From an uncultured Muribaculaceae bacterium (lineage in GTDB: Bacteria > Bacillota_I > Bacilli_A > RF39 > UBA660), in contig CAZELY010000006.1 in the NCBI GenBank assembly GCA_964513345.1, forward strand, positions 1-49,027: a stretch of 49,027 nucleotides of DNA, read 5' to 3'. Shown here piece after piece: positions 21,867 through 45,055 of this stretch; the stretch's first letter is position 1; the number at the start of each line of letters is the position of its first letter. The notes below the pieces were generated by a model. The model did not search any database, was not told the origin of the DNA, and saw only the letters and a list, made by a program, of their open reading frames with translations. The position numbers and the translations under genes were made by a program.

Positions 21867-21940
<74 letters not shown>

Positions 21941-21950
21941 GGTTGATAGT

Positions 21951-21979
21951 AAGTTCAAACTTTTATGTTTGAACTTTTT
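21951..21979 (+). terminator. Terminator after tRNA-Gly(TCC), inside cassette A
   Basis: AAGTTCAAAC-TTTTAT-GTTTGAACTT followed by TTT. Confidence 0.75.
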
Positions 21980-22308
21980 ATATGTCCCACTAATTTTAAG
22001 ATTTTTATAAAAGTGGGCCTATTACTTTTCCTTATTTTATAACATTTTTTATCAATTACGATTAGTAATTGGGATAGATTTTGCAAGTGCAAAATAAGAA
22101 TGATACTACGTAAAACCCGTTATTTTTCAAAGAAAAATAGGTGTCGTGGTATCATCTTCTTATCCTGATAAAAATTTTTACTTAAAATTTAGAAGTTTTT
22201 GGGATATGTAAATTAAAACTGTAAAGTACAATTTTTTATAGTAATATCTACACCATTTTTATTAGATGCATGATAAAATGTTGTTGTAGAAAATAGGAGG
22301 TAAAAATT

Positions 22309-22872
22309 ATGGAAAACAAAAGTACAGGAAAAACTGTAGCAATAATTATTTTATTACTTGCGGTATTAGGGTTGGGTGGATATATTATTTTTGACAAAGT
22401 ATTAAATACTAAAGAGGAACCAACTATAGTTGAAGATAATGCGAAAACAAATGAAACTAGTATTCAAACATACAATTATAACGATGTTAAAGGATTATAT
22501 ACGTACACAGGGCAACAAGTCCATAGTGAAGCAAATGATGGAAATATAACTCCTAAATATGAATTATATTTATATGAAAATGGAATGTTCTATTATAACT
22601 ATGCATATCTTGCAGGTGAAGGGAAAATAGGAAACTACACAATTGTTAATAATACTATAGTTCTTAATAATTTGTTTGATACCCATAGTGATGTTTCACT
22701 TACTACTACCAACGGAACAAATGCTTTAACTATAAACGAAGATGGTTCATTAACTGATAATAATCAACCTATTTCGATTGTTAAAGAGCAAACAATAACT
22801 CTTAAAAAAACACCAACTAATGTTAACTATCAAGATGTACAAGATAAATTTAAATCAGCATTTGCCAATTAA
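22309..22872 (+). CDS. Cassette A cargo: membrane-anchored surface protein, GLGGYI(V/I)(Y/F)DK family
   Basis: AGGAGG RBS, MENKSTGK + TM + LGLGGYIIFDKVLN, Asn/Thr-rich beta ectodomain. Confidence 0.9.
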   Translation: MENKSTGKTVAIIILLLAVLGLGGYIIFDKVLNTKEEPTIVEDNAKTNETSIQTYNYNDVKGLYTYTGQQVHSEANDGNITPKYELYLYENGMFYYNYAYLAGEGKIGNYTIVNNTIVLNNLFDTHSDVSLTTTNGTNALTINEDGSLTDNNQPISIVKEQTITLKKTPTNVNYQDVQDKFKSAFAN

Positions 22873-22939
22873 TAGTTAAAAACAGTATTAATTATAAAAT
22901 AAGCAGTTGTGCTACATTTTATTATTAAACAATAATAAA

Positions 22940-23016
22940 TTAATGCAGTTAGTAAGTCTAATTACTAATGTTTGGACTTGTGAAAAAGTTGCCAGACTTC
23001 TTCTTCACCCGCTCCA
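22940..23016 (+). repeat. Conserved cassette right arm + att core (copy 1)
   Basis: 61/66 identical to the reverse complement of 43664-43729, followed by the tRNA 3' fragment. Confidence 0.92.
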
Positions 23017-23025
23017 TTTAATAAT

Positions 23026-23056
23026 TAAATCACAAATTTTAATAATTTGTGATTTT
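23026..23056. terminator. Probable original tRNA-Gly(TCC) terminator, displaced
   Basis: AAATCACAAATT-TTAAT-AATTTGTGATTT followed by TT, about 10 nt after the att repeat. Confidence 0.7.
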
Positions 23057-23100
23057 TATTTTCCTGCAATCGCGGTATTATTTCAAACAAAAAAGAGCAT

Positions 23101-23421
23101 TTATTGCTCTTTTCCACAAGATTTGCAGAATTTCGAATCGGCATCGATTTTACTACCACAATGTTTACAATATATGCCATCTTCTTCAGTAAATCCCTTT
23201 TTTATAGCTCTCGTGGTAGTTTCAATTCCATCTTTAGTAGCGTCAGCCATATCCGTCGAAATACTATGAATATCTTCCTTTGATTCATCCATCATATATT
23301 TCATAGACTTTACCTGTTTACTCATCATTTTAGCCCTTGCTTTCGGACTAAACATTAAAACAAACACAAATATAAATATTAATATTGCAATGCCAAATAT
23401 AATATATATCATACCAAACAT
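23101..23421 (-). CDS. Membrane protein with C-terminal zinc ribbon
   Basis: N-terminal TM and YCKHCGSKIDADSKFCKSCG. Confidence 0.85.
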   Translation of the reverse strand: MFGMIYIIFGIAILIFIFVFVLMFSPKARAKMMSKQVKSMKYMMDESKEDIHSISTDMADATKDGIETTTRAIKKGFTEEDGIYCKHCGSKIDADSKFCKSCGKEQ

Positions 23422-23458
23422 CAAATCATCCTTCCTATTATCATTATAGCATATTTTA

Positions 23459-24220
23459 TTATTTCTTGGCTAAGAAAGCCATGAATTGTGGAAATTCATG
23501 ATACCTATACCAATAATTGTAATCTAAATCTTTAAGTTCATCCACACATATTGATTCTTTAAAATCTTCTATTTGAAAACCAACTTTTTTTAACATTTGA
23601 AAATGCGCTGAAGGTGAAGCAATGTACATTAAAAATGTCATATCTTCACATGCTAAATATTCTTCTATTTTAGTAAAAGTATTATAATTACCATATATCT
23701 TATTTTCTTTATTAGAGTTTTGATACCCCAATAATTTAAACTCTTTATTATCTATCCTTATTTTTTCGCTAGTCCATCTCATTGGATGGCCTACTGAAAA
23801 TAAAAAATTGCCGTCTTTTTTTAACACTCTATAAACTTCTTTATATACTTTTTCGGGATCACTTGAATAATGTATGGACAAGCTACTATATACAAAATCA
23901 AAACTATTGTCATCAAATGGCAATTCATGCATATTCCCTACTATAAATTCATAGTTAGGATATGTTTCTCTAGCAATTTCAATTGATGGTTCTGAAATAT
24001 CAAGACCAATAATTTCTGATGGTTTAAATTTCTCCAATAATTTAGATTCTTCGCCAGTTCCACAACCAAGCATTAAAACTTTTTTACCTTTTAAATCTGG
24101 CATCATGCTTTTCATCATTGGCTTTTCTACAAAACTATGTGCTCTATTAACGTTACTTAATAATTCCTTTTGTCGTTCTTTTGCTTTGCCATCATAGTCA
24201 TTAATTTTACTATTCATCAT
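23459..24220 (-). CDS. Class I SAM-dependent methyltransferase
   Basis: KKVLMLGCGTG, GLDIS, FDFVYSSL and VLKKDG motifs. Confidence 0.9.
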   Translation of the reverse strand: MMNSKINDYDGKAKERQKELLSNVNRAHSFVEKPMMKSMMPDLKGKKVLMLGCGTGEESKLLEKFKPSEIIGLDISEPSIEIARETYPNYEFIVGNMHELPFDDNSFDFVYSSLSIHYSSDPEKVYKEVYRVLKKDGNFLFSVGHPMRWTSEKIRIDNKEFKLLGYQNSNKENKIYGNYNTFTKIEEYLACEDMTFLMYIASPSAHFQMLKKVGFQIEDFKESICVDELKDLDYNYWYRYHEFPQFMAFLAKK

Positions 24221-24284
24221 ATCACCTATAAATATTATACCATTAAAATGAATTTAATTGTGCTATAATATATATGGTGATTAT

Positions 24285-24803
24285 ATGATAGCACTAATAG
24301 TGGCAAATATTCTCCTTTTTATCGCATCAATTATTGGCGTATACAATGGCTACTTAAAAGATAAAAAAAGAATAATAATAAATCATTCTATAAATTTAAT
24401 TTTATCACTTATATCATATCTTCTTTTAGGAGGATATTCAGGAGCAATTATATGCTTTGCAGGACTTTTGAGAAATTTTTTGGCCTATAACGAAAGATTA
24501 GACTGGCCAACTAAAATATTATTAATTGCGGTTGCTGGGGCATTAATCGTCTCATTTAACAATTATGGCTTGGTAGGATATTTTCCATTAATTAATTTTG
24601 CTGTCTATACTTCAATTATCGACACTAAAAATATGTTACTGTTTAAAAGAGTTTGCGCTTTTAATTGCATTTTAAGTGGATTATATAATTTTGTTCTTTT
24701 TGCCTTCTCAGCATTTGCCTTTAACGTTATAACTTTAATAATGAATTTAATAGCTATTTATCAAATAAAATATAAAAATATTAATAAAATGAAAAAAATT
24801 TAA
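24285..24803 (+). CDS. YgjV-like inner membrane protein
   Basis: Six TM segments with LLGGYSGA...LLRN pattern; start placed at MIALIV. Confidence 0.7.
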   Translation: MIALIVANILLFIASIIGVYNGYLKDKKRIIINHSINLILSLISYLLLGGYSGAIICFAGLLRNFLAYNERLDWPTKILLIAVAGALIVSFNNYGLVGYFPLINFAVYTSIIDTKNMLLFKRVCAFNCILSGLYNFVLFAFSAFAFNVITLIMNLIAIYQIKYKNINKMKKI

Positions 24804-24811
24804 AAAAAGGG

Positions 24812-24924
24812 TTGACAAACATATTTTATATGTTATAATGAATACAGTGATTTAATTGATTCAATTAAATCACTACAGGGAAAGATTATTACGATATTAA
24901 TTGTAATTGGTCTTTCCCTTTTTT
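24812..24924 (+). promoter_or_regulatory. Promoter, 14-bp inverted repeat and leader terminator
   Basis: TTGACA-N16-TATAAT; AGTGATTTAATTGA-T-TCAATTAAATCACT (24846-24874); GGGAAAGATTATTAC...GTAATTGGTCTTTCCC followed by T6 (24878-24924). Confidence 0.7.
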
Positions 24925-24950
24925 GTTTTAAAATAGGAGGTTGATAAGAA

Positions 24951-25457
24951 ATGAAAACAAATTTGACGAACTTAATGAGTATTCTTTCAGAAGAAGAAAA
25001 GAAATTTTCTGATTATTTATTAAACTTAAGAAAGCTTGCTTATACATCAGAAATTCAAGAACTTGATGGTACTATTAATGTTACCCAAGATTTTAAAAGT
25101 GATTTTGATGAAGCCTTTGCAGATTGCAAGAGCATTCAAAAAAGAATCACTAAATTAAAATCTGTTATTAGTGAAAAAAACAATGAGTTTAAGCTTGAAG
25201 ATGGTCGTACCATTCAAGAAGCAATCTACGATAATACAAATTTGCGAAAACTTAAAACTCTATACAATACTTTAATTCCTTTAAGAGATTCTAAAGAAAG
25301 GGTTACTGAAGTACATAATTCATACTTTGAATGTAAAAAAGTAAACTTTGATTTAAAAACTCTAAAAAAAGAATTAAAAGAGATTGAAAACAAAATACAA
25401 CAAACAGATTTTGAAATTTCTAAGTTAAATTCAATAGAATTTGAAATAGAAATGTAA
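24951..25457 (+). CDS. Coiled-coil hypothetical protein (DIP1984-like by resemblance)
   Basis: AGGAGG RBS; long helical segments, RITKLK..I...N...KL.DG.TI.EAI and E.KIQQ..N pattern. Confidence 0.6.
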   Translation: MKTNLTNLMSILSEEEKKFSDYLLNLRKLAYTSEIQELDGTINVTQDFKSDFDEAFADCKSIQKRITKLKSVISEKNNEFKLEDGRTIQEAIYDNTNLRKLKTLYNTLIPLRDSKERVTEVHNSYFECKKVNFDLKTLKKELKEIENKIQQTDFEISKLNSIEFEIEM

Positions 25458-25460
25458 TAG

Positions 25461-25680
25461 ATGGTGCTTGCGAATTCTAGCAAGGTAAATGAGATAGATA
25501 TCTAAAGCCATTATCTTTCCCAAATGTTTTATATTTATAGTAAATTTAATAGGTATTGAGATTCTATTTTGAATAATTTACATTATACGATTTATTAACT
25601 GTTACAATTTATAATTTATTATATGTGCTTTAATTATTGTTTTTATGTAATACTATGGATATATAAATATGCGGGGGAGA
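25461..25680 (+). ncRNA. Candidate structured ncRNA
   Basis: 5' domain AUGGU/GCCAU enclosing a CUUGC/GCAAG hairpin; ~27-bp long-range stem 25514-25542 with 25651-25680 containing several G-U pairs; no ORF. Confidence 0.55.
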
Positions 25681-25703
25681 TTAAAAGGATGATCACTAAG
25701 TGA

Positions 25704-26171
25704 TCATCCTTTTTTATTAACTAATCTCATAACTTTTCTAATACTCTTAACCAATATTTGTTTAACTCTTTCTCTAGATAAATCAAATTCATCCATCAAT
25801 TGTTCAATTGTATAGTTATATCCGTCTATCAAACCAAAACGCCTGCCTATAATTTTTTGCTCACGCTCATTTAAAACATCTATATTGTTTTTTATTGTTA
25901 ATTTTAATTTTTCATATTCGTTATTATCCTTAATACAAATTTCATTATTTGAGACATAGCAGTCATAAGGATGATGATACTCATTTTTCTTTATCTCTGT
26001 TTTTTTCAGTAGTTCTTTCATATCAACAACATCTTGTAATTTTTCATCTAATAAAGTAGCCAATTCTTCGTTAGTTGGAGTTCTTTTATTTGTTTCTTTA
26101 AACTTCTTTTCAGCTTTTAACATTTTATTAATTCTTTCAACAAAATAAACTGATACTTTTAAATTTTTCAT
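25704..26171 (-). CDS. Sigma-70 region 3/4-only protein
   Basis: RTPTNEELA (region 3) and LNEREQKIIGRRFGL...SRERVKQI (region 4); region 2 absent. Confidence 0.8.
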   Translation of the reverse strand: MKNLKVSVYFVERINKMLKAEKKFKETNKRTPTNEELATLLDEKLQDVVDMKELLKKTEIKKNEYHHPYDCYVSNNEICIKDNNEYEKLKLTIKNNIDVLNEREQKIIGRRFGLIDGYNYTIEQLMDEFDLSRERVKQILVKSIRKVMRLVNKKG

Positions 26172-26295
26172 AATATCTCTCCTACGCTAAATAATTATAT
26201 ATCACAAAATTATTTACCTGACAACCGATTTATTAGAAAAATATAGATTTTTAATAAATAATATGATATATTAAAATTGTAAAGGAGTTGTATGT

Positions 26296-27072
26296 ATGGC
26301 AAAGCAAAAGAAAATTGTTGACATTACAAAAGAAGACACAAAATCTAAAGAAAGGTATGGAGTTGATTCTAACAAAAAAATTGTTAAATTAGAAGATAAA
26401 GGTGATCCTAAAAAACGTGCCAAATGTAAACGTATTTGGGCAATAGTTTTATGGGTTATAGCTATAGCTTTTGAAGTAATTGCAATTTTAAGATTAAATG
26501 GCACTATCGAGTGGTTTGCCAGTTTAAGTGTTGAAGCTTTTATAATAATATGTATTATTCTTGATTTAGCTTTTGTTATTCCTGGTTCCCTACTATGGAA
26601 AAAAGCTAATCACATCGATCCAGCTTCAGAAAAAGATCCAACAAAATTCTGGCTAGCAAACAATTTGGGAACTATAATTTCAGTAATAGCTTTCTTACCA
26701 TTAATCATCTTAGTTCTAGTGAACAAAGATCTAGATAAAAAATCTAAGGCCATTGTTTCGATTATAGCTGTAGTTGCGATGCTAATAGCCGGCGTAACTA
26801 GTTATGACTTCAATCCAGTATCACAAGAGCAATTAGCTCAAGCTGAAGAAGAAGTTGAAGCTGTTGGAACACTTGGTGATGATGGCAAATATCATGTATA
26901 TTGGGCCCCACATAGTAAAAAATATCATGTTGATCCAGATTGCCCAGCATTTTCACAAAGCGAAACAATATACGAAGGTACGGTTAAACAAGCTTTTGAA
27001 AATAATTTAACTGATCCATGTAGAAGATGTATTCCAGCTTTGGACAAACAAGACCACGGGGATGAAAAATAA
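26296..27072 (+). CDS. Membrane protein with C-terminal Cys/His metal-binding domain
   Basis: Four TM segments, then VYWAPHSKKYHVDPDC...PCRRC. Confidence 0.75.
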   Translation: MAKQKKIVDITKEDTKSKERYGVDSNKKIVKLEDKGDPKKRAKCKRIWAIVLWVIAIAFEVIAILRLNGTIEWFASLSVEAFIIICIILDLAFVIPGSLLWKKANHIDPASEKDPTKFWLANNLGTIISVIAFLPLIILVLVNKDLDKKSKAIVSIIAVVAMLIAGVTSYDFNPVSQEQLAQAEEEVEAVGTLGDDGKYHVYWAPHSKKYHVDPDCPAFSQSETIYEGTVKQAFENNLTDPCRRCIPALDKQDHGDEK

Positions 27073-27326
27073 TGGCTAAAAAAATTGTTAAAGTCGAAGA
27101 TACAAAAAAAACTAAAAAATCAGTTAACTTAGGTAAAATTGCTTCAACTATTATGGAAAATACAGATGCCGTTGAAAAAATTGTTGATGGCATTAGTGAT
27201 ATTATGAACAGTGATACAAAATCGTCAAATAAGAAAACAACAAAGAAAAAATCGACAAAAAAATCAGCTAATAAAGACAATTTATCAACAGTAATTGATA
27301 TTGCTGAAAAGATATTTAAAAAATAG
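27072..27326 (+). CDS. Small Lys-rich hypothetical protein
   Basis: Translationally coupled (TAATG overlap) to the upstream gene. Confidence 0.7.
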   Translation: MAKKIVKVEDTKKTKKSVNLGKIASTIMENTDAVEKIVDGISDIMNSDTKSSNKKTTKKKSTKKSANKDNLSTVIDIAEKIFKK

Positions 27327-27344
27327 AACGAATTGTTCTATTTT

Positions 27345-28247: not shown

Positions 28248-28549
28248 TATTCCTCACCTACCATTTTTTCGATTTCTTCTTTTGGCTGCATACCAAAACT
28301 GCGGTTAACTTCTTGGCCATCTTTAAAAAGAATCAAACATGGTATTGACATAACTCCATATTTTTTAGCTAATTCCTCATTATTATCAACATCCACAGAG
28401 ACTATTTTAACCCCTTCAATTTCTTCTAAGATCGGCCTTAACATTCTACATGGACCACACCAATTTGCGTTAAAATCAACTAAGACTTTTTCTTGGGCAT
28501 TAATAACCTCATTATCAAAATTATCATTTGTGATTTCTTTAATTTCCAT
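28247..28549 (-). CDS. trxA: Thioredoxin
   Basis: WCGPC motif. Confidence 0.97.
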   Translation of the reverse strand: MEIKEITNDNFDNEVINAQEKVLVDFNANWCGPCRMLRPILEEIEGVKIVSVDVDNNEELAKKYGVMSIPCLILFKDGQEVNRSFGMQPKEEIEKMVGEE

Positions 28550-28646
28550 AACTATGCTCCTTCTATGTTAATGGTATCATAAACAGTATATAAAAGCAAT
28601 AAAACTTTATTCTAGTTGACACTAAAAAAGATAAACTAAGTTTATC

Positions 28647-29201: not shown

Positions 29202-29235
29202 TTTTTCACTCCTTCTTTTTAATTATAACATAATC

Positions 29236-31146: not shown

Positions 31147-31169
31147 AATTACCTCTCCCTCTTATTCTT

Positions 31170-32426: not shown

Positions 32427-32451
32427 AAAAAGATTGCACGCACAATCTTTA
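32427..32451 (-). terminator. Terminator after second fibre gene
   Basis: AAGATTG-TGCGTG-CAATCTT followed by T-run on the minus strand. Confidence 0.6.
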
Positions 32452-33084
32452 AACTTGCGAATAATTAATAGTAATATTTAATGTACCTGTTTCTTCCATT
32501 TCCATGTTTCCAGTACTAGCAGGTGTCCAAGTACCATTATTATTTGTACATGCCTCTTGGGTAGTTGAAATGCCGTCACTACAACTAGCCGCAACAGTAT
32601 CAACAAAATCAGCTCTAACTGTCATTGTCGTTGTACCACCTGGAGCTAAAGTACTTGTTGATGGTGCGGTAACTGTAAATTTTACATGCCCTTGAGTAGC
32701 AGTCAAACCATTAATTGTAAAATCGTTACCAGATAATGTTGGTGCTGCAGCCACAGCTGAAAGCGTACCACCATTAATTATTCTTAGCGTAAATATTATA
32801 TAGTCACCCGGTTGATTTAAATCAGCGTGTAATTGTGCTGTTAAAGGTTTGTCACCGTTGCCATAAGTTAATGTCCCAGAAGGGGCAATACCAACAGCCG
32901 GTGTTGATGGTGCAATATCAGCATTTACTTGTGCTGCTTTATCAAAATGTACATCCCAATTTGATGTAATCTGCGCCGAACCTGTAATTTGTAATTGTGT
33001 TGCAAAGGCAGCATAACCTACTGCCATTACTAATACTATAGCAAGTAATCCGGCAATTAAAATATTCTTTTGTCTTGTTTCCAT
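32449..33084 (-). CDS. SipW-dependent signal-peptide protein (TasA/CalY-like fibre subunit)
   Basis: KNILIAGLLAIVLVMAVGYAAF leader; Thr/Gly-rich beta body with PGD...NGGT; one Cys pair. Confidence 0.75.
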   Translation of the reverse strand: METRQKNILIAGLLAIVLVMAVGYAAFATQLQITGSAQITSNWDVHFDKAAQVNADIAPSTPAVGIAPSGTLTYGNGDKPLTAQLHADLNQPGDYIIFTLRIINGGTLSAVAAAPTLSGNDFTINGLTATQGHVKFTVTAPSTSTLAPGGTTTMTVRADFVDTVAASCSDGISTTQEACTNNNGTWTPASTGNMEMEETGTLNITINYSQV

Positions 33085-33186
33085 AACCATTCTCCTAACT
33101 TTATTATTCCCTATCTTATACTTATATGGTATCACATAAAATATTTAATATCAATATGTTTTATTCAATTTAATGTTTTTTGACAA

Positions 33187-33210
33187 AAAAAAGATTACGA
33201 AAGTAATCTT
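33187..33210 (-). terminator. Terminator between the two fibre genes
   Basis: AAGATTAC-TTTC-GTAATCTT followed by T-run on the minus strand. Confidence 0.65.
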
Positions 33211-33218
33211 AATTTTCA

Positions 33219-33800
33219 TTATGAAGTAACTTGTTCATAGTCAATTACAAGTGTAGCAGTTTTACTAACACTTGCTGGTTGTGTGCTACTATCTGCAGGA
33301 TCATATGTAACTGTTACAGTCATTGTAGTTTCAGCTCCTGGTGTTAATGTACTAGCACTATTTGCAAAGTTGTAGCTATACTTAATTGGCTCATCACCAG
33401 CAGTTGTGTCTTCTACTTGTGGATTTGCAGCAGCATCTTGAATCCATTTGATACCATTTGTTTTAACTCTAGCAGGTAAAGTTCCACGGTTCTTAATCGT
33501 TATTGTATAAGTAACAGTGTCGCCCGGTGTTTTTAAGTTAGTGTTAAAGGTTGCTGTTGTAGCTGTATTACTGTGTGAAATATCGCCTGATTGTGGATAT
33601 ACAAGACGTCCATTTACAGTTGTTTGTTCACCAGCAGAAGCACTTGGTGTAACTGAAATTATTGCTACATCCCATTGTGAATCAACACTAGCTGTACCAG
33701 TAATTTGTAATTGCGTTGCAAACGCAGCATAACCTACTGCCATTACTAATACTATAGCAAGTAGTCCTCCTATCAAAATATTCTTTTGTTTTGCATCCAT
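33219..33800 (-). CDS. SipW-dependent signal-peptide protein (TasA/CalY-like fibre subunit), paralogue
   Basis: KNILIGGLLAIVLVMAVGYAAF leader and PGDTVTYTITIKNRGTL. Confidence 0.75.
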   Translation of the reverse strand: MDAKQKNILIGGLLAIVLVMAVGYAAFATQLQITGTASVDSQWDVAIISVTPSASAGEQTTVNGRLVYPQSGDISHSNTATTATFNTNLKTPGDTVTYTITIKNRGTLPARVKTNGIKWIQDAAANPQVEDTTAGDEPIKYSYNFANSASTLTPGAETTMTVTVTYDPADSSTQPASVSKTATLVIDYEQVTS

Positions 33801-36551: not shown

Positions 36552-36555
36552 GATT

Positions 36556-38688: not shown

Positions 38689-38743
38689 TTAAATCTCTCC
38701 TATTTATTTAAGTATAGCATATCAGCATTTATTTTTAAAGGCT

Positions 38744-39952
38744 TTAATATTTTTTACTTATTTTCTTTTTACCCCTCATTGAAGCCTTGCCAATCGCATT
38801 ATAGCCATATTTATTTTTTATTTTATCAACCGCATCATTTAGGCTACGATCGTTCAAATGATCGTCAGATTTATCAAAAATTGATGGTTGATAAATACTT
38901 TCATATGTTAAATCATCAACCCCTAATCCTACTAATCGAATAGCTTCATCTTTCCACATATCATCGACTAGCTTTTTAGCGGTTTCAAAAATAGTAGTCA
39001 TACTATTCGTAGCATTTTTTAATTTAACTTGGTGGGTAAAGTTTTTAAAATTGGAATTTTTAAGTTGAACTCGCACAACATAGGCATAGCGGTTTTCACG
39101 ACGAAGTTGCGATGACAAATTGTCGGCAATAGCTTCTAAAATGTCATAAACATCTTCTTTATAAATCAAATTGTGTGGAAGTGTGGTACTATTGCTTATA
39201 CCTTTCGATACTATTTGACTAGAATCAACTTTTGAATTATCAATGCCGTTAGCAAAGTTTATCATTCTTGATGCCTGATTTTTAAAGTATGGATATAAAT
39301 ATTCTACTTTTTTAACACTTAAATCACCAATGGTATTAATGCCAAGCTCACGTAATTTCAATGATGTTTTTTTACCGATAAAAAACAAATCTTCAATTGG
39401 TAAAATTTTCATTTTTTGATCAATCTCATTTTCAAAAAGTGTATGGACTTTATCAGGTTTTTCAAAATCAGAAGCCATTTTGGCACATAGTTTAGAATTA
39501 GCAATCCCTATGTTAACCGTAAAACCCAACTCTTTTTTAATTTCATTTTTTAATTTGTAAGCAAATTTAACCTCATCACCATATAAATGTTTAATTGGGC
39601 CATAATCTAAAAAGCATTCATCAATACTCATTTTTTCAATATCTGGTGTATATTTAGAAATCAAATCAAATAATTTATTGGACATTTCTTTATACCATTT
39701 ATAATTTGGTTTATATACTTTAAGCGTTGGGCATTTTTTTCTCGCCATATAAATTGGTTCACCGGTTTTAACGCCTTTCTTTTTTATGGGTGTTGATTTA
39801 GCAAGCACAATTCCATGACGTCTACTTTCTTCGAAGCCAATAACCGCATATGTGTTTCTAATATCTATGGTTGCACCTTCATTAAGCATTAAAACAGCTG
39901 TCCACGATAAGAAAGCATTGTTAACATCTATATGCATGATGATTCTTTCCAT
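38744..39952 (-). CDS. dinB: DNA polymerase IV
   Basis: HIDVNNAF, MSIDECFLD, AKMASDFEKP and little-finger domain; start placed at MERII. Confidence 0.93.
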   Translation of the reverse strand: MERIIMHIDVNNAFLSWTAVLMLNEGATIDIRNTYAVIGFEESRRHGIVLAKSTPIKKKGVKTGEPIYMARKKCPTLKVYKPNYKWYKEMSNKLFDLISKYTPDIEKMSIDECFLDYGPIKHLYGDEVKFAYKLKNEIKKELGFTVNIGIANSKLCAKMASDFEKPDKVHTLFENEIDQKMKILPIEDLFFIGKKTSLKLRELGINTIGDLSVKKVEYLYPYFKNQASRMINFANGIDNSKVDSSQIVSKGISNSTTLPHNLIYKEDVYDILEAIADNLSSQLRRENRYAYVVRVQLKNSNFKNFTHQVKLKNATNSMTTIFETAKKLVDDMWKDEAIRLVGLGVDDLTYESIYQPSIFDKSDDHLNDRSLNDAVDKIKNKYGYNAIGKASMRGKKKISKKY

Positions 39953-39976
39953 ATTACCACCACTTATATTATAACA

Positions 39977-39990
39977 CGAACGCATGTTTT
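39977..39990. promoter_or_regulatory. LexA/DinR (Cheo) box upstream of dinB
   Basis: CGAAC-GCAT-GTTTT, directly upstream of an extended -10 TGTTATAAT. Confidence 0.7.
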
Positions 39991-40025
39991 GTGCGCAAAA
40001 AAAGAAAGCATTTTTGCTTTCTTTC

Positions 40026-41564
40026 TTAGATAAGTGTTAAGATGCAGCAAACTAATAAAATAATTAAGGCTGCTACAACAGCAAATTTCCAGATGTATTT
40101 AATCCATTTTTTATAAGATACATCGAAATAGCTTAAACCAGCAATTAGAATAGCACTTGTTGGAAGTAAGATCATTGCTAAACTATACATTGATTGTGAT
40201 AATAGTCCTGCAATACTAATCATGCCTGAACTAAATCCAGAAATATAAGTTTGTAGACTATATAGTAAATAATATAAGTCATTGTAGAAGAAACTTCCAT
40301 ATAATGCGGTTAGACCTGTAGTAAGAACATTAAAGTCCCCTGTCATGGTCATGGTAGCATGGAACATTGTTTCTGTGATTGTTCCTGTTCCTTGATATGA
40401 TGCTTGATATAATACTGATAAGATTACACTAGCTAAAGCAGCATATAAAGCTGTTGGCATCATTTTCTTAATTCCAGCAATAAAGCTTTCAACAAATTCA
40501 TTTATTGATAATCTATAAATGAAAGCAATAACGATAGCTGCTAGAACCATCATAATAACAAATTCATTATTTCCCCAATAACCAAGAGCGTTGATACCAC
40601 TCAATAAATTTTCAAAAATTGGGAATCCATGAATTTTAACACCCATGATTGTTGAATGAAGATTACTAAATGCTTCAATTCCAAATGCATAATACCAGTT
40701 GTACATACCAAATAGTGATACAATCATCATAAGTGCGAAAATGATAACAAGTGGTAAAGTACTAATACCTTTGTTAGCGTTTACCTTTTTAACATCTTTG
40801 CTTATAGCCATGTTTTTAGTTGTTGCCTTAGTAGTACGCTTTGCAGGTTTTTTAGTTGTTTTAACTGCTTTTTTAGGTGCTGCTTTTTTAGGCTCAACTT
40901 TTTTAGTTTCGACTTTTTTAACAGTGGCTTCTTTTTTGACAGCTTTCACTTCTTTTTTAGCATTAAACTTAACAACAAATAAAATTAAAGCTGTTGTAAG
41001 TAATACTAGCAAGATTACTTTGGCAATGATTTGATCATTCATGTCTAAGAATAAAATGTTTTTAGTATAACCAGAAATGTTAAATCCATAAGTTGATGCC
41101 ATAGAACCTACTAGAATTGCTCCTACTGTAGCTGCTAGGCTAGCAACTTTATCAACATTCATTCTAGCAAAAATCATTGCGAATAATGGTACCAATGCAA
41201 ATAGTGGTAACATTAATCCAGTTAGTGAAGATAAAACTGCAAAGAAGATAATTGTACAAATTAAAAATCTTTTTTCTTTACCAGCTTTTTTCTTGCAGAT
41301 TTTTTCTACTAATGCATCCAAAGCTCCAGTTTTATGCATTACGCCATATAAACCACCTATACAGCAAAATACAACTACATATAGTGCAAAAGTGACAAAT
41401 GTAGATGCTGGAACACCTATTAAATCAAATAGGCCAATAGCATTAATACTACCTGTTGTAAATTTTGCTCCTTCCCCTGAGTAAGATCCTGTTGGAATAA
41501 TCCAACTAAGAACTACGAAAATTAAGAAACATATTCCAATTGCCTTTAATAAATTTCTTTTCAC
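40026..41564 (-). CDS. YfcC/DcuC-like multi-pass transporter with Lys-rich insert
   Basis: LSWIIPTGSY, IGGLYGVM.KTGA and ILLPTS...GL...DVSYKKW motifs; about 12 TM. Confidence 0.75.
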   Translation of the reverse strand: MKRNLLKAIGICFLIFVVLSWIIPTGSYSGEGAKFTTGSINAIGLFDLIGVPASTFVTFALYVVVFCCIGGLYGVMHKTGALDALVEKICKKKAGKEKRFLICTIIFFAVLSSLTGLMLPLFALVPLFAMIFARMNVDKVASLAATVGAILVGSMASTYGFNISGYTKNILFLDMNDQIIAKVILLVLLTTALILFVVKFNAKKEVKAVKKEATVKKVETKKVEPKKAAPKKAVKTTKKPAKRTTKATTKNMAISKDVKKVNANKGISTLPLVIIFALMMIVSLFGMYNWYYAFGIEAFSNLHSTIMGVKIHGFPIFENLLSGINALGYWGNNEFVIMMVLAAIVIAFIYRLSINEFVESFIAGIKKMMPTALYAALASVILSVLYQASYQGTGTITETMFHATMTMTGDFNVLTTGLTALYGSFFYNDLYYLLYSLQTYISGFSSGMISIAGLLSQSMYSLAMILLPTSAILIAGLSYFDVSYKKWIKYIWKFAVVAALIILLVCCILTLI

Positions 41565-41650
41565 TCTTTCTACCTCCCATGATAATTATAGCAGATTTTC
41601 TTTATAATATAAAGTTTTTTTGACAAAATTTACAATTTTTACTATAAAAA

Positions 41651-41670
41651 AAATATCACGAAGTGATATT
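41651..41670 (-). terminator. Terminator after phosphoesterase gene
   Basis: AATATCAC-TTC-GTGATATT followed by T-run. Confidence 0.65.
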
Positions 41671-41675
41671 AATAT

Positions 41676-42605
41676 TTATTTTCGACTTTTACGAAGTCTT
41701 TTATTACCAAATGTTTGTAATTCTTGACGCATACTTATAATATTTCCTTTTTTATCCATATCGATATCTAGCCACCAACAAGATTTATCATTAGCAAGTC
41801 CCTGGGCTTTACAAAATGGTGTCATGTCTTCTAAACAGCTTGTTTGAAAACAATGAGTATTATCTTGTTTCATGTAGAAACTTTGATGAATATGTCCTGT
41901 TTGCAAAATTTGTGGCAATTCGTCAATTGGAATAGTATCTAAATATTTTTGAATTTTATATGATTTAGCATAAGCGCTTCCGCCTTTACCATGGAATAGT
42001 CTTATCTTAAGCTTACCAATTTTTAAATCAGCATAGCCACTTCCTAAATAAACGATATCATCTCTTTGTTTAGCTATAGCTTTTACTATTTCGCTGCCGC
42101 TTGATTTATACCACCAATCATCGTGGTTTCCTTGAATAGCATATGTTTTTATTGAATCACTTTTAGGATATTTGTCAACACAATAATCTACTTGACCTTC
42201 ATAACTAACTTCTTTTAATTCATAAACGTGCTCAGGTCTAGTACTTCTACCATCGGTAAAATCACCAGCATGTAATATATGCTTAACACCACGTTTTTCT
42301 GCTTCTTCATATATGTAATTCAAAATATCTAAGCGATCATATTTACTTGCCAAATGCGTATCGCTTATTAAGCATAGTTTAAGGCTATCACTAGCATAAG
42401 GAACTTCATATACATCGTCCGTTTTAAAAGGTTGTTTTAATTTAACGATTTCACCATTAACATAATCAATTAATTCGCCATCTTCTTTCATAAGTTCAAC
42501 TAAGCCTATTACTTCATAATCCTTAAGTTCAAGTTCTGTACAGATGTCGACTAAATCCTTTCTTTTTTTAATTAGTTGTTTTAATTTCTTTTTTAATTCA
42601 TCCAT
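41676..42605 (-). CDS. Calcineurin-like metallophosphoesterase with N-terminal HTH-like domain
   Basis: SDTH, HAGD..DG, GNHD, FHG and TGHIH motifs. Confidence 0.9.
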   Translation of the reverse strand: MDELKKKLKQLIKKRKDLVDICTELELKDYEVIGLVELMKEDGELIDYVNGEIVKLKQPFKTDDVYEVPYASDSLKLCLISDTHLASKYDRLDILNYIYEEAEKRGVKHILHAGDFTDGRSTRPEHVYELKEVSYEGQVDYCVDKYPKSDSIKTYAIQGNHDDWWYKSSGSEIVKAIAKQRDDIVYLGSGYADLKIGKLKIRLFHGKGGSAYAKSYKIQKYLDTIPIDELPQILQTGHIHQSFYMKQDNTHCFQTSCLEDMTPFCKAQGLANDKSCWWLDIDMDKKGNIISMRQELQTFGNKRLRKSRK

Positions 42606-42763
42606 ATTAAACCTCCCACAAAATTTTTGGATAGAATCAACTAGTTATACATTAATCGAGGTTTTTAAAACTAAAAATCTACCATACATAAAAAAAGTTG
42701 ATGTTTAGTGATGCGGCAATAGCATCTAGTATCCTTTTACATTATAACATGCTTTTTGCAAAA

Positions 42764-42772
42764 TGTGGATAA
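42764..42772 (-). promoter_or_regulatory. Perfect DnaA box at the -35 position of the phosphoesterase promoter
   Basis: TTATCCACA on the minus strand, with its 3' end 17 bp upstream of TATAAT (42741-42746). Confidence 0.5.
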
Positions 42773-42816
42773 CTTTTTGAATTTTTTTGAAACTTTTTTT
42801 ACAAAAATAAAAAACC

Positions 42817-42833
42817 CTTTATATTAAAGGGCT
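42817..42833 (-). terminator. Terminator after 42844..43509
   Basis: GCCCTTT-AATAT-AAAGGGT followed by T-run. Confidence 0.65.
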
Positions 42834-42843
42834 CATAATTATG

Positions 42844-43509
42844 CTATTTGATTTTTATATAATCTTCTAAATTATATAAAGTGCCATCAGTACTTTGAGC
42901 AAGTACTGTAATATGTCCTCCGCCAGCATCTTCAATCCAAGCACTTGCAGTATAAAATTTAACTATGTTGGTTAAATTACTAACCTGTCCAGAAGATTTA
43001 AATTCTGATTTTTGCAATGAAGAATATATTGGAATATATTCTATGCTACCATCTTCCATAATAAATAAAGCGATAGTTCCTGTTTCATCTTGCCCTATTG
43101 TTCCAATATAAATATCTTCTATTTCTTTAGAAAAATTAACTACAAATTCATCATATTTATCTTTTTTTAAATTAGAATCAACAAGATTATTCCACGAAAC
43201 ACTAATCTTTATTTGTTTTTGATTATCTCCTAAATTAATATTTATGCCTGTCATTGACCATGCTTGAGATAGTGAATATTTCAAATCTTTATTTGATGAC
43301 AAAACTTTAGAAGAATTAAACTTAAATAAATAATTAATACTATCTTGTTTTTCTGTTCCCATAGTTTTTCCATCTTGTTTCTCTGTTTTAGTAGGTTCCT
43401 CATTTTCTTTATTTAAAACTTTATCATAAACAATATATCCACCCAAACCAATAACTGCTAATAATAAAGCAATAATTAATATAGTCTTTCCTGTACTTTT
43501 ATTTTCCAT
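42844..43509 (-). CDS. Membrane-anchored surface protein, GLGGYIVYDK family
   Basis: MENKSTGKTILIIALLLAVIGLGGYIVYDKVLN; start placed at MENK. Confidence 0.9.
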   Translation of the reverse strand: MENKSTGKTILIIALLLAVIGLGGYIVYDKVLNKENEEPTKTEKQDGKTMGTEKQDSINYLFKFNSSKVLSSNKDLKYSLSQAWSMTGININLGDNQKQIKISVSWNNLVDSNLKKDKYDEFVVNFSKEIEDIYIGTIGQDETGTIALFIMEDGSIEYIPIYSSLQKSEFKSSGQVSNLTNIVKFYTASAWIEDAGGGHITVLAQSTDGTLYNLEDYIKIK

Positions 43510-43612
43510 TTTTTCACTCCTTACATTTTTATACAATTTAATTTTATCACATTTTTATTGTTTATTATTGCAATAATTTCTTTTTTGCATCCATTTGACA
43601 TGTTGTTTTACA

Positions 43613-43643
43613 AAAAAACTTACAAACATATAGTTTGTAAGTT
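43613..43643 (-). terminator. Terminator immediately beyond the cassette B att repeat
   Basis: AACTTACAAAC-TATAT-GTTTGTAAGTT followed by T-run. Confidence 0.75.
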
Positions 43644-43652
43644 ATTTCCACC

Positions 43653-43729
43653 TGGAGCAAGGAAAGAAGAAGTCTGACAACTTTTTCACACGTCCAAATA
43701 TTAGTAATTAGATTTACTAACTACATTAA
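43653..43729 (-). repeat. Conserved cassette right arm + att core (copy 2)
   Basis: Reverse complement matches 22940-23016 with 5 mismatches in the 66-nt arm. Confidence 0.92.
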
Positions 43730-43764
43730 GTATATCATAGAAGTTATTTATATAATTATAAATT

Positions 43765-44601
43765 TTATTTTATAACTTCATAACTTACTAAATAATAATT
43801 GTTATTATCTTTAGCAAATGTGTATTTGTATTGTGGCTTTAGGTTTTTAAATTGGTCATAATTTTGTTCGTAGTATTGTTTTGCTTTTTCTTTATCTGTT
43901 TTAAGAACTTCACCAATTTCACTTTTATTTGTAAATTGATGTAATTCATTAATCTTTGTTGTAAATTGAGCATCAGCATAATATTCTTGTTCTGGGGTTT
44001 CAATTAGCCCCATAGCTGGTTCATATACTCTTGTAATTGTAAGTACATAATTATCTACATTCTTTTCAATATTTGCTACTTTTGAAATTAATGGTTTATT
44101 TTCCATAGCATCGTGTGATACATTGTTTTCCACATAATCATTTTTTGTTTTATCAAATGTAGCAAGTGGCATTGTGAAACCACCAAATATTATGTCGGGG
44201 TAATTAGTTAATTGTATATTATATAAATCTTTTAGATAATTATCTACATTTGTTTTGTTTATAGTTATATTATTTAAAAGAAAATAAAAATATAATGTTT
44301 CAATTTGAGCCTCACTTAATTCATTTTTTACTGTTAAATTATTTAAATTTTCTACATCTCCAAAAATATACAATTTATATTTTTCTGATTTTTCAAAGAG
44401 TGAATTAGCAATAGCATTTAAATCCTCTTTTGGTGCTTCTACTTTTTCTGTTTTTTCAGGTTCATTTGCTTCTGTACTTTCTTTAGTTAACAATTTATCA
44501 TAGACAATATAGCCACCTAATCCTAAAACTAACAATACTAAAATAATAATAGCAATTATTGTTCCTTTGCTTTTTTTTAAATTTTCATTTTGATTTTCCA
44601 T
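43765..44601 (-). CDS. Cassette B cargo: membrane-anchored surface protein, GLGGYIVYDK family
   Basis: MENQNENLKKSKGTIIAIIILVLLVLGLGGYIVYDKLL; ectodomain unrelated by eye to the cassette A cargo. Confidence 0.9.
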   Translation of the reverse strand: MENQNENLKKSKGTIIAIIILVLLVLGLGGYIVYDKLLTKESTEANEPEKTEKVEAPKEDLNAIANSLFEKSEKYKLYIFGDVENLNNLTVKNELSEAQIETLYFYFLLNNITINKTNVDNYLKDLYNIQLTNYPDIIFGGFTMPLATFDKTKNDYVENNVSHDAMENKPLISKVANIEKNVDNYVLTITRVYEPAMGLIETPEQEYYADAQFTTKINELHQFTNKSEIGEVLKTDKEKAKQYYEQNYDQFKNLKPQYKYTFAKDNNNYYLVSYEVIK

Positions 44602-44699
44602 AAAACACACACCTTTCTACTTTTTTATGCAACAACATTTTATCATACATCTAATAAAAATGGTGTAGGTACTATTATAAAAAATTGTGCTTTACATTT

Positions 44700-44882
44700 T
44701 TACTTTACATAAGCAATATTAGTGTTTTTAATGCTTATAATATTACCGTTTTCATAAGTAGGAGTAGTATTAGTAAACCGGCATTAAAATTAATGTCGTT
44801 TATTTTCTAATTGTAAAACTTTTACATCTTCTTTTTTAAATGTTTTATTTATTTCTAATTCTTTAGTTTTTTTATCTAACAT
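44700..44882 (-). pseudogene. Interrupted reading frame (MLDKKTK...NKRH**...FTNTTPTYENGNIISIKNTNIAYVK)
   Basis: ATG with RBS-like GAAAGTGAGAG; 61 codons in one frame with two internal TAA. Confidence 0.4.
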
Positions 44883-44980
44883 ATAATCACTCTCACTTTC
44901 CATTTTACATAACAAAAAAACTAACTATTTCTAGTTAGTAAATCTATTTATGTTCGAAAAGTTCGAACTTACTATCAACC

Positions 44981-45055
44981 TGGAGCAAGTGACCGGAATC
45001 GAACCGGCATCTTAGCCTTGGCAAGGCCATATACTAACCGTTGTACTACACCTGC
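44981..45055 (-). tRNA. tRNA-Gly(GCC)
   Basis: 75-nt cloverleaf GCAGGTG...CACTTGC-T-CCA, anticodon loop TT-GCC-AA. Confidence 0.96.

Follow-up and report, generated by a model that had tools for sequence, protein, structure and literature searches.

Cis-mobilizable elements (CIMEs) that derive from ICEs or IMEs are known, for example at the fda site of Streptococcus thermophilus (Guedon et al. 2017, PMC5704250). They resemble the two units analysed here, cassettes A and B, in that integration and transfer genes are lost while attL and attR are kept at the 3' end of a conserved gene, and tandem accretion with functional relatives and origin by internal deletion are also common to both. Unlike CIMEs, A and B are much smaller, have parents that use a large serine recombinase (LSR) and tRNA CCA ends, and include, in A, a candidate oriT. 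A second comparison is with Tn4451/Tn4453 of Clostridium perfringens and Clostridioides difficile (TnpX LSR, TnpV, TnpZ Mob), which share LSR, TnpV and relaxase with intact relatives of A and B. TnpX targets GA dinucleotides with low site specificity, whereas the A/B family inserts precisely after the tRNA CCA, and its LSR gene is preceded by a conserved small ORF of 90 aa. LSR, TnpV and relaxase are all missing from A and B themselves.

Pseudo-SCC (ccr-less SCC) at rlmH/orfX of staphylococci is recombinase-less, is bounded by attachment repeats of the CcrAB/CcrC LSRs, occupies the 3' end of a housekeeping gene, frequently lies in tandem with complete elements, and is excisable when Ccr is provided. 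A and B target tRNA genes instead of rlmH, reside in a different host phylum branch and are far smaller; the comparison is by NCBIfam score, with LSRs of the A/B family scoring best against the CcrB model, yet below its cut-off. Integron gene cassettes are, like A and B, single-gene units without their own recombinase at a fixed site whose occupants differ by strain. However, attC, attI, IntI and a common Pc are missing from A and B, each of which has a promoter of its own and is bounded by LSR-element ends. A and B are most likely a known kind of relic of mobile elements, rather than an integron-like system.

Results

Cassettes A and B, 1.1-1.3 kb in size with one gene each, lie in a 49,027-nucleotide stretch of DNA (the window, Table 1) from an uncultured gut bacterium. 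The direct repeat of A is TCACCCGCTCCA, read from the sequence at 21929-21940 and 23005-23016, and that of B is CTTGCTCCAGGT, read at the end of tRNA-Gly(GCC) and at 43650-43661. ARAGORN and the sequence reading confirm that 12-nt duplicates of the tRNA 3' end bound both cassettes, as the preliminary description had stated. The earlier view that A and B are site-specific insertions at tRNA 3' ends and members of one family is supported. The cassette ends, GGTTGATAG.. and ..CTTCTTCTT, are not inverted repeats. A DDE/IS-type transposon or MITE was rejected, as there are no terminal inverted repeats, and the length and content of the direct repeats follow the tRNA end with no fixed-length target-site duplication.

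Table 1 Features of cassettes A and B and their insertion sites in the window.
Feature	Position	Strand	Basis
Consensus promoter of tRNA-Gly(TCC)	21820-21848	+	Promoter scan
tRNA-Gly(TCC), target of cassette A	21867-21940	+	ARAGORN; Rfam 64.6 bits
Cassette A	21941-23016	+	Between intact tRNA-Gly(TCC) and 12-nt copy of its 3' end
A left end (attL), P' half-site GGTTGATAGTAAGTTCAAAC	21941-21976	+	23/24 identical to B; variant of family left end, CCA followed by GATTGATAGGAAACTCGAAC
Hairpin and T-run in A left end, now terminating the tRNA transcript	21951-21976	+	Terminator call
Family-conserved structured motif, candidate MOBP-type oriT	22066-22172	+	nhmmer; covariation; nick consensus
Promoter and 5'UTR block of anchor-gene family	22205-22299	+	84/95 identical to B; resembles promoters of contig C13 paralogs
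Cargo A, 187 aa, N-terminal membrane anchor and extracytoplasmic domain	22309-22872	+	ORF list; no Pfam or PDB match
A right arm (attR)	22940-23016	+	68/77 identical to B (43653-43729); homologous to right end of LSR-bearing element in L128
Original 3' flank of tRNA-Gly(TCC) (attB B' side), with native terminator hairpin	23017-23058	+	Same flank after different family right end in L275-L278
Second accessory module: terminator (43617-43643), promoter, 221-aa anchor gene (42844-43509)	42832-43649	-	Missing together with B in empty allele
Cassette B	43650-44980	-	Between intact tRNA-Gly(GCC) and 12-nt copy of its 3' end
B right arm (attR), with 12-nt repeat CTTGCTCCAGGT at 43650-43661	43650-43729	-	Aligned with A arm and family right ends
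Cargo B, 278-aa anchor-family protein	43765-44601	-	ORF list
Promoter and 5'UTR block of cargo B, left limit at pseudogene truncation point	44617-44711	-	84/95 identical to A block
Pseudogene of family 90-aa small ORF	44703-44882	-	tblastn E=5e-10 against small ORFs of LSR-bearing elements
B left end (attL)	44913-44980	-	Hairpin-2 26-mer in at least 120 stretches of public genomes
tRNA-Gly(GCC), target of cassette B	44981-45055	-	ARAGORN; Rfam

The blocks common to A and B are the top inverted-repeat pairs across the whole window. All three blocks reported earlier were recovered, the left end as described (23 of 24 nt identical), but the promoter block is 95 nt long, not 82, and the right arm 77 nt, not 66. 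The arms are ~12% diverged, and the best-conserved parts are the half-sites beside the junctions (left 23/24, right P half-site 21/22). The ~270 nt after the left end are unrelated between A and B, and their internal junctions differ, as expected from independent decay. Beside the core, the right arms differ (CACCCG versus TCCTTG), and each version agrees with the tRNA at its own site. A crossover limited to CCA is not sufficient by itself to account for this, which counts against the explanation preferred below. The whole-genome search proposed in the preliminary description found no further copy of the arms in the 886-kb genome, and the exact arms have no match in 60 related genomes, viral contigs or metagenome contigs.

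The structured motif of cassette A contains the hairpin ATTTTGCAAGTGCAAAAT, a long covarying stem and then TTATCCTG, with ATCCTG at 22162-22167. By nhmmer, 21 copies (16 distinct sequences) are found in related elements, and compensatory changes occur in 10/16 pairs. The reported nick consensus is (C/T)ATCCTG(C/T) (PMC3772185); in cassette A, the motif is followed by A, where the consensus has C or T. We note that the hairpin together with TATCCTG makes this region a candidate MOBP-type oriT. The promoter block of A has an extended -10 TGATAAAAT around 22271-22279 and the RBS AGGAGG, and its right arm consists of the hairpin GTTAGTAA..TTACTAA, the P half-site AAAAAGTTGCCAGACTTCTTCTT and the 12-nt tRNA-end copy.

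The left end of cassette B contains the P' half-site, hairpin 1 GTTCGAAcTTTTCGAAC and hairpin 2/terminator CTAACTAGAAATAGTTAGTTTTTTTG. The small-ORF pseudogene covers codons 1 to ~49, with two in-frame stops and one insertion, and is cut at 44703, while the homology between A and B starts at 44711. A 30-codon ORF in B, absent from the preliminary description, is the start of this pseudogene. The 221-aa module plus the outer flank of B has no clean CCA junction on its far side; thus, the 2.15-kb difference between the B locus and the empty allele is not one clean site-specific event.

Cargo A has no Pfam or PDB match and is ~30% identical to two paralogs behind tRNA-Pro, and cargo B is 40% identical over its full length to C13:21899-22696, a gene behind tRNA-Leu(CAA). 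As described before, A and B each have a single ORF whose product carries a ..GLGGYI..DK anchor at its N-terminus, but a third anchor gene lies just outside B. The ectodomains had been called unrelated-looking; BLASTP of cargo A against cargo B indeed gave no alignment anywhere, anchor included, but each ectodomain has a paralog elsewhere in the genome. In this genome, 9-10 genes belong to the anchor family. Of about 6 loci with such genes, 4 lie directly behind tRNA genes, and the A/B arms are missing from all anchor-gene loci other than A and B. The promoter block also resembles promoters of anchor-gene paralogs on C13, and its reading as a cassette component is not supported; the common promoter and membrane anchor belong to a chromosomal gene family rather than to the cassettes. 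Behind tRNA-Pro on C13 lies an array of four tandem anchor genes, whose inter-gene repeats, 92-99% identical, suggest gene conversion or unequal crossing-over. The second and third gene of this array are each preceded by 27 nt that imitate the 3' end of tRNA-Pro and then by a copy of the tRNA-Pro terminator.

A and B read GGTTGATAGTAAGTTC(A/G)AAC at the left end, in agreement with the family pattern, in which CCA is followed by (G/A)ATTGATAGGAAACTCG.., hairpin 1 and the terminator hairpin 2; both hairpins are present in B. A scan of public genomes with the hairpin-2 26-mer of B found at least 120 stretches. Among the matches listed, the 26-mer lies 43-45 nt after the tRNA CCA, or downstream of a preceding element's right end, and follows 14 tRNA species (for example Gly-TCC at 26 loci, Gly-GCC at 12 and Cys at 9). 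The same left end behind differing acceptor stems fits a crossover at or near CCA, not a long identity segment. At the 80 loci with at least 1.5 kb downstream among the matches listed, a complete LSR starts ~520 nt away in 25, LSR fragments are found in 9 and none in 46. LSRs next to attL are also carried by intact members in G012, G062 and L075, and A and B have none ~0.5 kb from their left ends. The family, which is Tn4451-like and mobilizable, is very common in RF39 and other gut Bacilli MAGs.

Intact members are a few kb long and are arranged as attL, hairpin, terminator hairpin, 90-aa small ORF, LSR, variable cargo, a structured motif ending in TATCCTG, and attR. The cargo often includes TnpV (PF14198), a relaxase (MobA/VirD2-like or Mob_Pre) and a NikA-like protein. 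Intact members are inserted immediately after the encoded CCA and supply their own terminator for the tRNA, and the final part of their right arm mimics a short stretch of the tRNA 3' end. The small ORF is absent from A. In L128, the LSR-bearing element has a right end to which the right arm of A and B can be aligned (hairpin CAGTTAGTA..TTACTA, then AAAGGTTGTCCGACTTC..GCTCCA), and alignment with L128, L145 and L275 gives the pattern AAAGTTG..N..GC(T/A)CCA joined to the native tRNA flank. In the complete genome G012, tRNA-Gly(TCC) is followed by a stack of three elements, and every junction has (C)GCTCCA. An LSR of G012 and the LSR of L075 are 99% identical, while core genes of the two species are only ~70-76% identical, which we take as an indication of recent transfer. 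The reconstructed attP of one family member has LSR-like inverted symmetry at 17/26 positions, centred between GC and TC of GCTCCA, a value reached by 4/2000 shuffles; for the reconstructed attP of A and B themselves, ungapped inverted symmetry is not significant.

No recombinase is encoded in A or B, in accordance with the preliminary description, and searches found no LSR remnant (tblastn) and no relaxase similarity in either. XerD (359 bits; cut-off 329.6) is the sole PF00589 protein of the genome. Serine recombinase (PF00239) has no match in the MAG, which is 84% complete, so that an LSR element may have been left unbinned.

Both sites vary in occupancy among conspecific strains, as the earlier account of the cassettes had anticipated. 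An empty tRNA-Gly(GCC) allele is present in L285, L288 and L289, where homology resumes at window position 42831. At the tRNA-Gly(TCC) site of L275-L278, a different family right end is joined to an identical B' flank. Up to the CCA (21940), L075 and the window share 99.4% identity; L075 then carries a small ORF and an LSR (Resolvase and Recombinase domains) of a subfamily whose left end differs from that of A and B.

Discussion

A and B are probably independently decayed, recombinase-less, CIME-like derivatives of one family of LSR-encoding integrative mobilizable elements, and they keep attL and attR. Judged by their sequences, they agree with CIMEs in having one cargo ORF each, ends homologous to family ends, and junctions exactly at CCA. 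Two related elements, each with an anchor-family gene beside the right arm and with arms now ~12% diverged, would have landed at tRNA-Gly(TCC) and tRNA-Gly(GCC), respectively. Internal deletions would then have removed the recombinase module in each. The deletion in B would have started at codon ~49 of the small ORF and reached the cargo promoter, and the one in A would have begun right behind the first hairpins and stopped at the oriT-like motif. The outcome would be a self-expressed single gene for a membrane-anchored extracytoplasmic protein between intact-looking recombination sites. We infer that an LSR made the A/B junctions by a crossover in or next to GCTCCA, and that these sites could still be usable with a cognate LSR, such as those of elements with the left end GATTGATAGG, supplied in trans. 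Trans-mobilisation of A and B is a plausible possibility. Points against the reading of A and B as decayed LSR elements are that the genomes and contigs searched contained no element combining an LSR with the exact A/B arms, that the reconstructed attP of A and B lacks significant ungapped inverted symmetry, that the change at the B locus is not one clean event, and that the MAG, at 84% completeness, may have left an LSR element unbinned.

A different possibility is that A and B are active non-autonomous mini-elements, cis-only units (att sites, one gene and, in A, an oriT) that are excised, transferred and re-integrated by the LSR, small ORF and relaxase of a full-length relative acting in trans, and that one copy begot the other. 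The strong conservation of the half-sites, the oriT-like motif with its ATCCTG core in A, and the LSR element at the same tRNA in a conspecific strain speak for it, as do the left ends without an LSR outnumbering those with one (46 versus 25 among the matches listed) and a 1.6-kb LSR-less unit of a similar kind in L145 and L194, whose upstream contexts differ. We nevertheless consider it unlikely. A and B have no common internal junction, and that of B falls within a pseudogene, which points to separate deletions; the divergence of the arms indicates no recent copying. Moreover, pattern scans found no circular junction or second-site copy of A or B, the same-species LSR belongs to the subfamily with a different left end, and the base after the nick motif of A departs from the consensus.

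It is very improbable that no site-specific recombination was involved and that an old segmental duplication or gene conversion was followed by within-species homologous replacement between the conserved tRNA and downstream genes. The promoter and anchor as gene-family features, the near-identical repeats of the tRNA-Pro array and the far side of the 221-aa module without a CCA junction would fit such events, but each distal repeat matches its own tRNA, the junctions lie exactly at CCA, both ends are homologous to mobile-element ends from over a hundred genomes, and the arms are confined to A and B among the anchor-gene loci.

The proposal of the preliminary description, tyrosine-integrase-dependent, integron-like cassettes at tRNA-Gly 3' ends, is hardly tenable: 11-12-nt direct repeats at tRNA 3' ends are a classic tyrosine-integrase signature, and IMEs at tRNA genes are assigned to tyrosine recombinases in an IME review (PMC5704250), but XerD is the only tyrosine recombinase of the genome, both ends are homologous to LSR-element ends, B has the LSR-linked small-ORF pseudogene, 25/80 related loci have an LSR after the same left end and this end follows 14 tRNA species (both among the matches listed), and the integron-like logic fails on the lack of attC-like or attI sites, the own promoter of each cassette and the differing internal junctions. 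A tyrosine-integrase tRNA island was also rejected, as full-length relatives (25/80 loci among the matches listed, together with G012, G062 and L075) carry an LSR next to attL.

Beyond the decay of two elements, we raise as a rather speculative and improbable view that, in this RF39 lineage, tRNA 3' ends are landing pads at which cassettes with a single surface-protein gene insert, as cis-only units moved in trans. In each unit, a gene with its own promoter, coding for a membrane-anchored protein, would be combined with LSR att half-sites and in some cases with a MOBP-type oriT, and the family LSR, small ORF and relaxase would be the movers. If true, this would account for the location of 4 of about 6 anchor-gene loci directly behind tRNA genes, and also for the tRNA-Pro 3'-end imitations and terminator copies in the tandem array. 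The target would be generic, with the enzyme reading the T-arm-to-CCA end common to tRNAs, and the system would be a serine-recombinase counterpart of the gene-cassette system.

Arrangement of the two cassettes

The MAG that contains the window (as its contig C6) is 886 kb in size, with ~30% G+C and 84% completeness. ARAGORN, the repeats and the common blocks confirm that two cassettes, A and B, each lie between a tRNA-Gly gene and a copy of that gene's 3′ end, as stated in the preliminary description. By sequence inspection, the left end of cassette A (GGTTGATAG...) abuts the CCA of tRNA-Gly(TCC), and the same left end abuts the CCA of tRNA-Gly(GCC) in cassette B. The distal repeats are a second TCACCCGCTCCA at 23005-23016 in A and CTTGCTCCAGGT again at 43650-43661 in B, each followed by a hairpin terminator. 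The blocks common to A and B, which form the strongest inverted-repeat pairs in the window, proved to be real and slightly longer than first given, with identities of 23/24 at the left end, 84/95 in the promoter block and 68/77 in the right arm. The att half-sites are the best-conserved parts of the two cassettes, and a whole-genome search found the arms to be unique in their own genome. Each cassette carries one ORF with a GLGGYI..DK membrane anchor.

Coordinates of the features discussed (window positions unless a contig is named)
Feature	Position	Strand	Location	Remark
tRNA-Gly(TCC)	21867-21940	+		ARAGORN
Cassette A	21941-23016		behind tRNA-Gly(TCC)	
Conserved structured motif, ~105 nt	22066-22172		cassette A	recurs in 16 distinct versions in related elements, loci L094-L194
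221-aa anchor-gene module	42832-43649		beside cassette B	accessory: missing along with B in the empty allele
Cassette B	43650-44980	-	behind tRNA-Gly(GCC)	
tRNA-Gly(GCC)	44981-45055	-		ARAGORN
tRNA-Pro(TGG) array	C13:3115-6640		another contig of the same MAG, outside the window	four tandem anchor-family genes

Recombinase class of the cassette ends

Insertions at tRNA 3′ ends are by default ascribed to tyrosine integrases, and the cassettes had been read in this way, as integron-like units. This reading failed in every membership test that we ran, and the cassette ends are homologous to those of elements carrying a large serine recombinase (LSR). The single PF00589 protein in the MAG is XerD (TIGR02225, 359 bits, above the cut-off), and a search of the MAG for PF00239 found no serine recombinase. 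DDE/IS and HUH elements were excluded, as both terminal inverted repeats and a fixed target-site duplication are lacking, and a Xer-dependent IMEX was excluded because the target is not dif.

The LSR elements are found at the same tRNA genes in related bacteria. In same-genus species, some tRNA-Gly genes are followed by a simple terminator only and others by a B-like left end. Locus L075, which is conspecific with the window and 99.4% identical to it over 4450 nt, loses this identity exactly at the CCA (window 21940). Beyond its tRNA come, in order, a hairpin and a terminator hairpin, a 93-aa ORF, and an LSR with Resolvase, Recombinase and Zn-ribbon domains. The complete genome G012 contains three such modules stacked behind tRNA-Gly(TCC), with (C)GCTCCA at every junction. 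An LSR of G012 shares 99% identity with that of L075, compared with ~70-76% for core proteins of the two species, and this indicates recent horizontal transfer. The same module is located behind tRNA-His in a further genome (G062), together with TnpV and a relaxase.

We scanned public species-representative genomes with the second hairpin of cassette B (CTAACTAGAAATAGTTAGTTTTTTTG) as the query, and at least 120 stretches matched, mostly from MAGs of gut Bacilli or "Tenericutes". Among the matches listed, the hairpin lies 43-45 nt past the CCA of 14 tRNA species, or else past the right end of a preceding element. The targets among these listed matches include Gly-TCC (26 loci), Gly-GCC (12), Cys (9) and Thr-GGT (5), as well as Leu, Trp, Lys, His, Arg, Ala, Met and Gly-CCC, and the left junction is invariably CCA followed directly by (G/A)ATTGATAGGAAACTCG... 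Judged by sequence, a variant of this family end, GGTTGATAGTAAGTTC(A/G)AAC, forms the left end of A and B. Among the 80 listed loci with at least 1.5 kb downstream, a complete LSR starts ~520 nt away in 25, fragments are present in 9, and no LSR is found in 46. We note that six copies of the left end (L121, L125, L129, L149, L155 and L174) are on contigs binned as Muribaculaceae, Bacteroidaceae or Paludibacteraceae, which could be mis-binned Bacilli contigs or could reflect a wider host range.

Comparison with intact family members

The two hairpins of the family are retained in cassette B, as are the ribosome-binding site and the beginning of the 90-aa small ORF that precedes the LSR in intact elements. 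A tblastn alignment (E=5e-10) covers residues 1 to ~49 of this ORF and includes two in-frame stops and one insertion. It stops at cassette position 278 (window 44703), and similarity to cassette A begins 8 nt further on, at 44711. B is therefore best described as a family member whose interior was deleted from small-ORF codon ~49 to the cargo promoter. On its left side, cassette A retains just the 24-nt half-site and hairpins of its own. At locus L128, an LSR-bearing element has a right end with which the 77-nt right arm of both cassettes aligns. In all three, the hairpin CAGTTAGTA..TTACTA is followed by AAAGGTTGTCCGACTTC..GCTCCA; the other family right ends, of the form AAAGTTG..GCTCCA, align less closely.

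The reconstructed family attP has an inverted symmetry centered between GC and TC of GCTCCA. This symmetry is 17/26 in element 1 of G012, equalled by 4 of 2000 shuffles, and 15/26 in the GATTGATAGG type, equalled by 61 of 2000. No significant inverted symmetry was found by the ungapped test in the reconstructed attP of A and B themselves. Two other contigs of the same MAG contain element-like left ends without an LSR, one with CCA followed by CTTAGAAATCTGTTCGAACTTCTCGAAC.. at tRNA-Thr GGT (C1:~132560-132641) and one with CCA followed by AATTGCTAGCGAACTCAAAC.. at tRNA-Leu TAG (C19:~7020-7100). These may be further relics or solo attL scars.

A candidate oriT in cassette A

The conserved motif in cassette A consists of a short hairpin (ATTTTGCAAGTGCAAAAT), a long stem and an invariant TTATCCTGCTTA, in this order, and its consensus form is TATCCTGC. 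Compensatory double changes are seen in 10 of the motif's 16 predicted pairs. The motif is located ~220 nt from the right end of the complete L128 element, and it is found in either orientation inside LSR elements. The nick region of MOBP-type oriT is (C/T)ATCCTG(C/T) after an inverted repeat (PMC3772185), and the intact relatives encode MobA/VirD2-like or Mob_Pre relaxases together with a NikA-like protein. From the match to the nick consensus and the presence of these proteins, we infer that the motif is a candidate oriT. The copy in A reads TTATCCTGA, in which the core hexamer is intact and the next base (A after G) is atypical. The motif is absent from Rfam; beyond the tRNA itself, Rfam returned only a sub-threshold c-di-GMP-I-UAU match to the motif (19.7 vs 65.9 bits), which we took as chance.

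Cargo and the anchor-gene family

Genes with the anchor motif form a family with 9-10 members in the same genome, and this family is present in 36 of 65 genus genomes. The promoter block shared by A and B had been described as a cargo promoter block. It resembles the promoters of other anchor-family members, and we assign it to the gene family rather than to the cassettes. BLASTP gave no alignment anywhere between the A and B cargo proteins. The cargo of B has a full-length paralog (40% identical) behind tRNA-Leu(CAA) on contig C13, and that of A has two paralogs (~30% identical) behind tRNA-Pro. Sequence searches of Pfam, PHROGs and PDB for cargo function gave nothing significant, and the AlphaFold2 models, built from alignments of 2-3 sequences, are unusable at pLDDT 40-41.

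Four of about six anchor-gene loci in the same genome lie immediately downstream of a tRNA and share its orientation. Genus-wide, a tRNA lies within 1.5 kb at 3 of the 29 best anchor loci, so a general link between anchor genes and tRNAs was rejected. In the tRNA-Pro(TGG) array, a degenerate 27-nt copy of the 3′ end of tRNA-Pro stands ahead of the second and third genes, followed by terminator and promoter copies 92-99% identical to those behind the tRNA itself, with a compensatory stem change in one terminator copy. The ends of this array are not of the LSR-element type, and no variation was seen in two other samples, where the array is identical.

Two further proteins in the window, at 10762-11391 (-) and 19264-19623 (-), have the same type of N-terminal anchor, and neither is beside a tRNA. 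The 209-aa one of these two is a distant relative of the 221-aa paralog (24% over 210 aa). Elsewhere in the window (32449-33800), two paralogous secreted proteins of 228 and 193 aa, encoded side by side, have a common 136-nt 5′ repeat that is 83% identical, and the pair adjoins a 389-aa membrane protein. Our guess is that the C-terminal part of the latter is signal-peptidase-like and that this is a TasA/SipW-like module. A gene for a LytR-CpsA-Psr/PASTA protein contains three tandem 36-nt repeats (46856-46963), which encode a Gly/Thr/Pro/Ser/Asp/Gln-rich C-terminal tail with units of the GGTTPSDQGGE type.

Strain variation at the two sites

Both sites vary among strains, as predicted beforehand, with an empty allele at site B and alternative occupants at site A. 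Four assemblies from different studies (L275-L278), with flanks 94-99% identical to the window, have the same native flank as the window (TTTAATAATTAAATCACAAA...) at site A, and in them it is joined to another right end of the family, ...GAGAAAAGTTGTGTAAGCACTCAACTATCGCTCCA. Three others (L272, L273 and L279; flanks 97.6-98.6% identical) have a larger island at this site with restriction-modification genes like those of L128, and L075 has its LSR element on the tRNA side. The island of the conspecific strain L272 (ERZ28654795 scaffold_31) encodes a DNA methylase with a 278-aa partner, as well as an ASCH protein and a membrane-anchored protein of 166 aa. The LSR element of L128 has the same methylase pair as cargo, and at site B strain L272 has the empty allele.

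The empty allele of site B, found in conspecific L285, L288 and L289, reads tRNA...CACTTGCTCCA joined to TTTGAAATTAACCCTTTAATAAAAAGGGTTTTT and runs directly into a metallophosphoesterase gene. Its flank has a terminator design conserved across the genus, so the empty state is ancestral. Relative to this allele, the window has 2149 nt extra (42832-44980) and lacks 11 nt. The extra DNA comprises cassette B and a second module with a 221-aa anchor gene, and every contig having the 221-aa gene also has B. No CCA junction is present on the far side of this module, and the stop codon of the 221-aa gene runs into the native terminator hairpin of the tRNA. Breaks in Logan contigs were rejected as a sign of strain heterogeneity; they fall in the tRNA anticodon region and are better explained by cross-species k-mer sharing.

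Origin of the two cassettes

The simplest account has two insertions and two deletions. Two related family members, with arms 12% diverged and each with an anchor-family gene adjoining the right arm, would have integrated at one tRNA-Gly gene each (TCC and GCC). The small-ORF/LSR module would then have been lost by a different internal deletion in each. This decay model does not account for the arrival of the 221-aa module, or for the right-arm positions beside the core, which differ between A and B, each toward its own tRNA. A cis-mobilizable element (CIME), as defined by Guedon et al., no longer has genes for integration and transfer and has kept attL and attR (PMC5704250); on this account, A and B are CIME-like relics.

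Mobilization of A and B in trans, proposed in the preliminary description, seems to us rather unlikely. It draws on the att half-sites being the best-conserved parts and on the oriT-like site kept by A. A circular attP junction would have the form ..CAGACTTCTTCTT-core-GGTTGATAG.. Exact-pattern scans of viral, metagenome and genome contigs, with the reconstructed attP, the junction of tRNA end and left end, and the right P half-site as patterns, found neither an excised circle nor a second-site copy. A BLAST search of 60 related genomes with a 137-nt right-arm query gave only chance-level matches. That a single mini-element copied itself is disfavored by the different internal junctions of A and B.

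Discussion

As CIME-like relics, A and B are of a known kind, and their closest parallels are CIMEs and the ccr-less pseudo-SCC elements. Their parent family is like Tn4451 in gene content (LSR, TnpV and Mob relaxase), but differs from it in that it uses tRNA CCA ends both precisely and generically and has a conserved small ORF. According to a 2017 review of integrative mobilizable elements, those with serine recombinases integrate inside genes, and tRNA 3′ ends are targets of tyrosine recombinases (PMC5704250). Our literature search found no description of a serine-recombinase family targeting tRNA CCA ends.

These results correct the enzyme class: the ends are those of a serine-recombinase family which targets the CCA end of many different tRNAs and is very common in human-gut RF39/Bacilli MAGs. 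A decayed member can be reduced to two att half-sites and one expressed gene, with an oriT-like site in some cases. This should help in annotating left ends without a recombinase (46 of the 80 listed loci), which are otherwise mistaken for odd tRNA terminators. Provided that the att sites still work, they could be used with their cognate LSRs as compact integration tools with a generic bacterial target. In this small-genome gut symbiont, the content that varies among strains behind tRNA genes includes genes for surface-exposed proteins.
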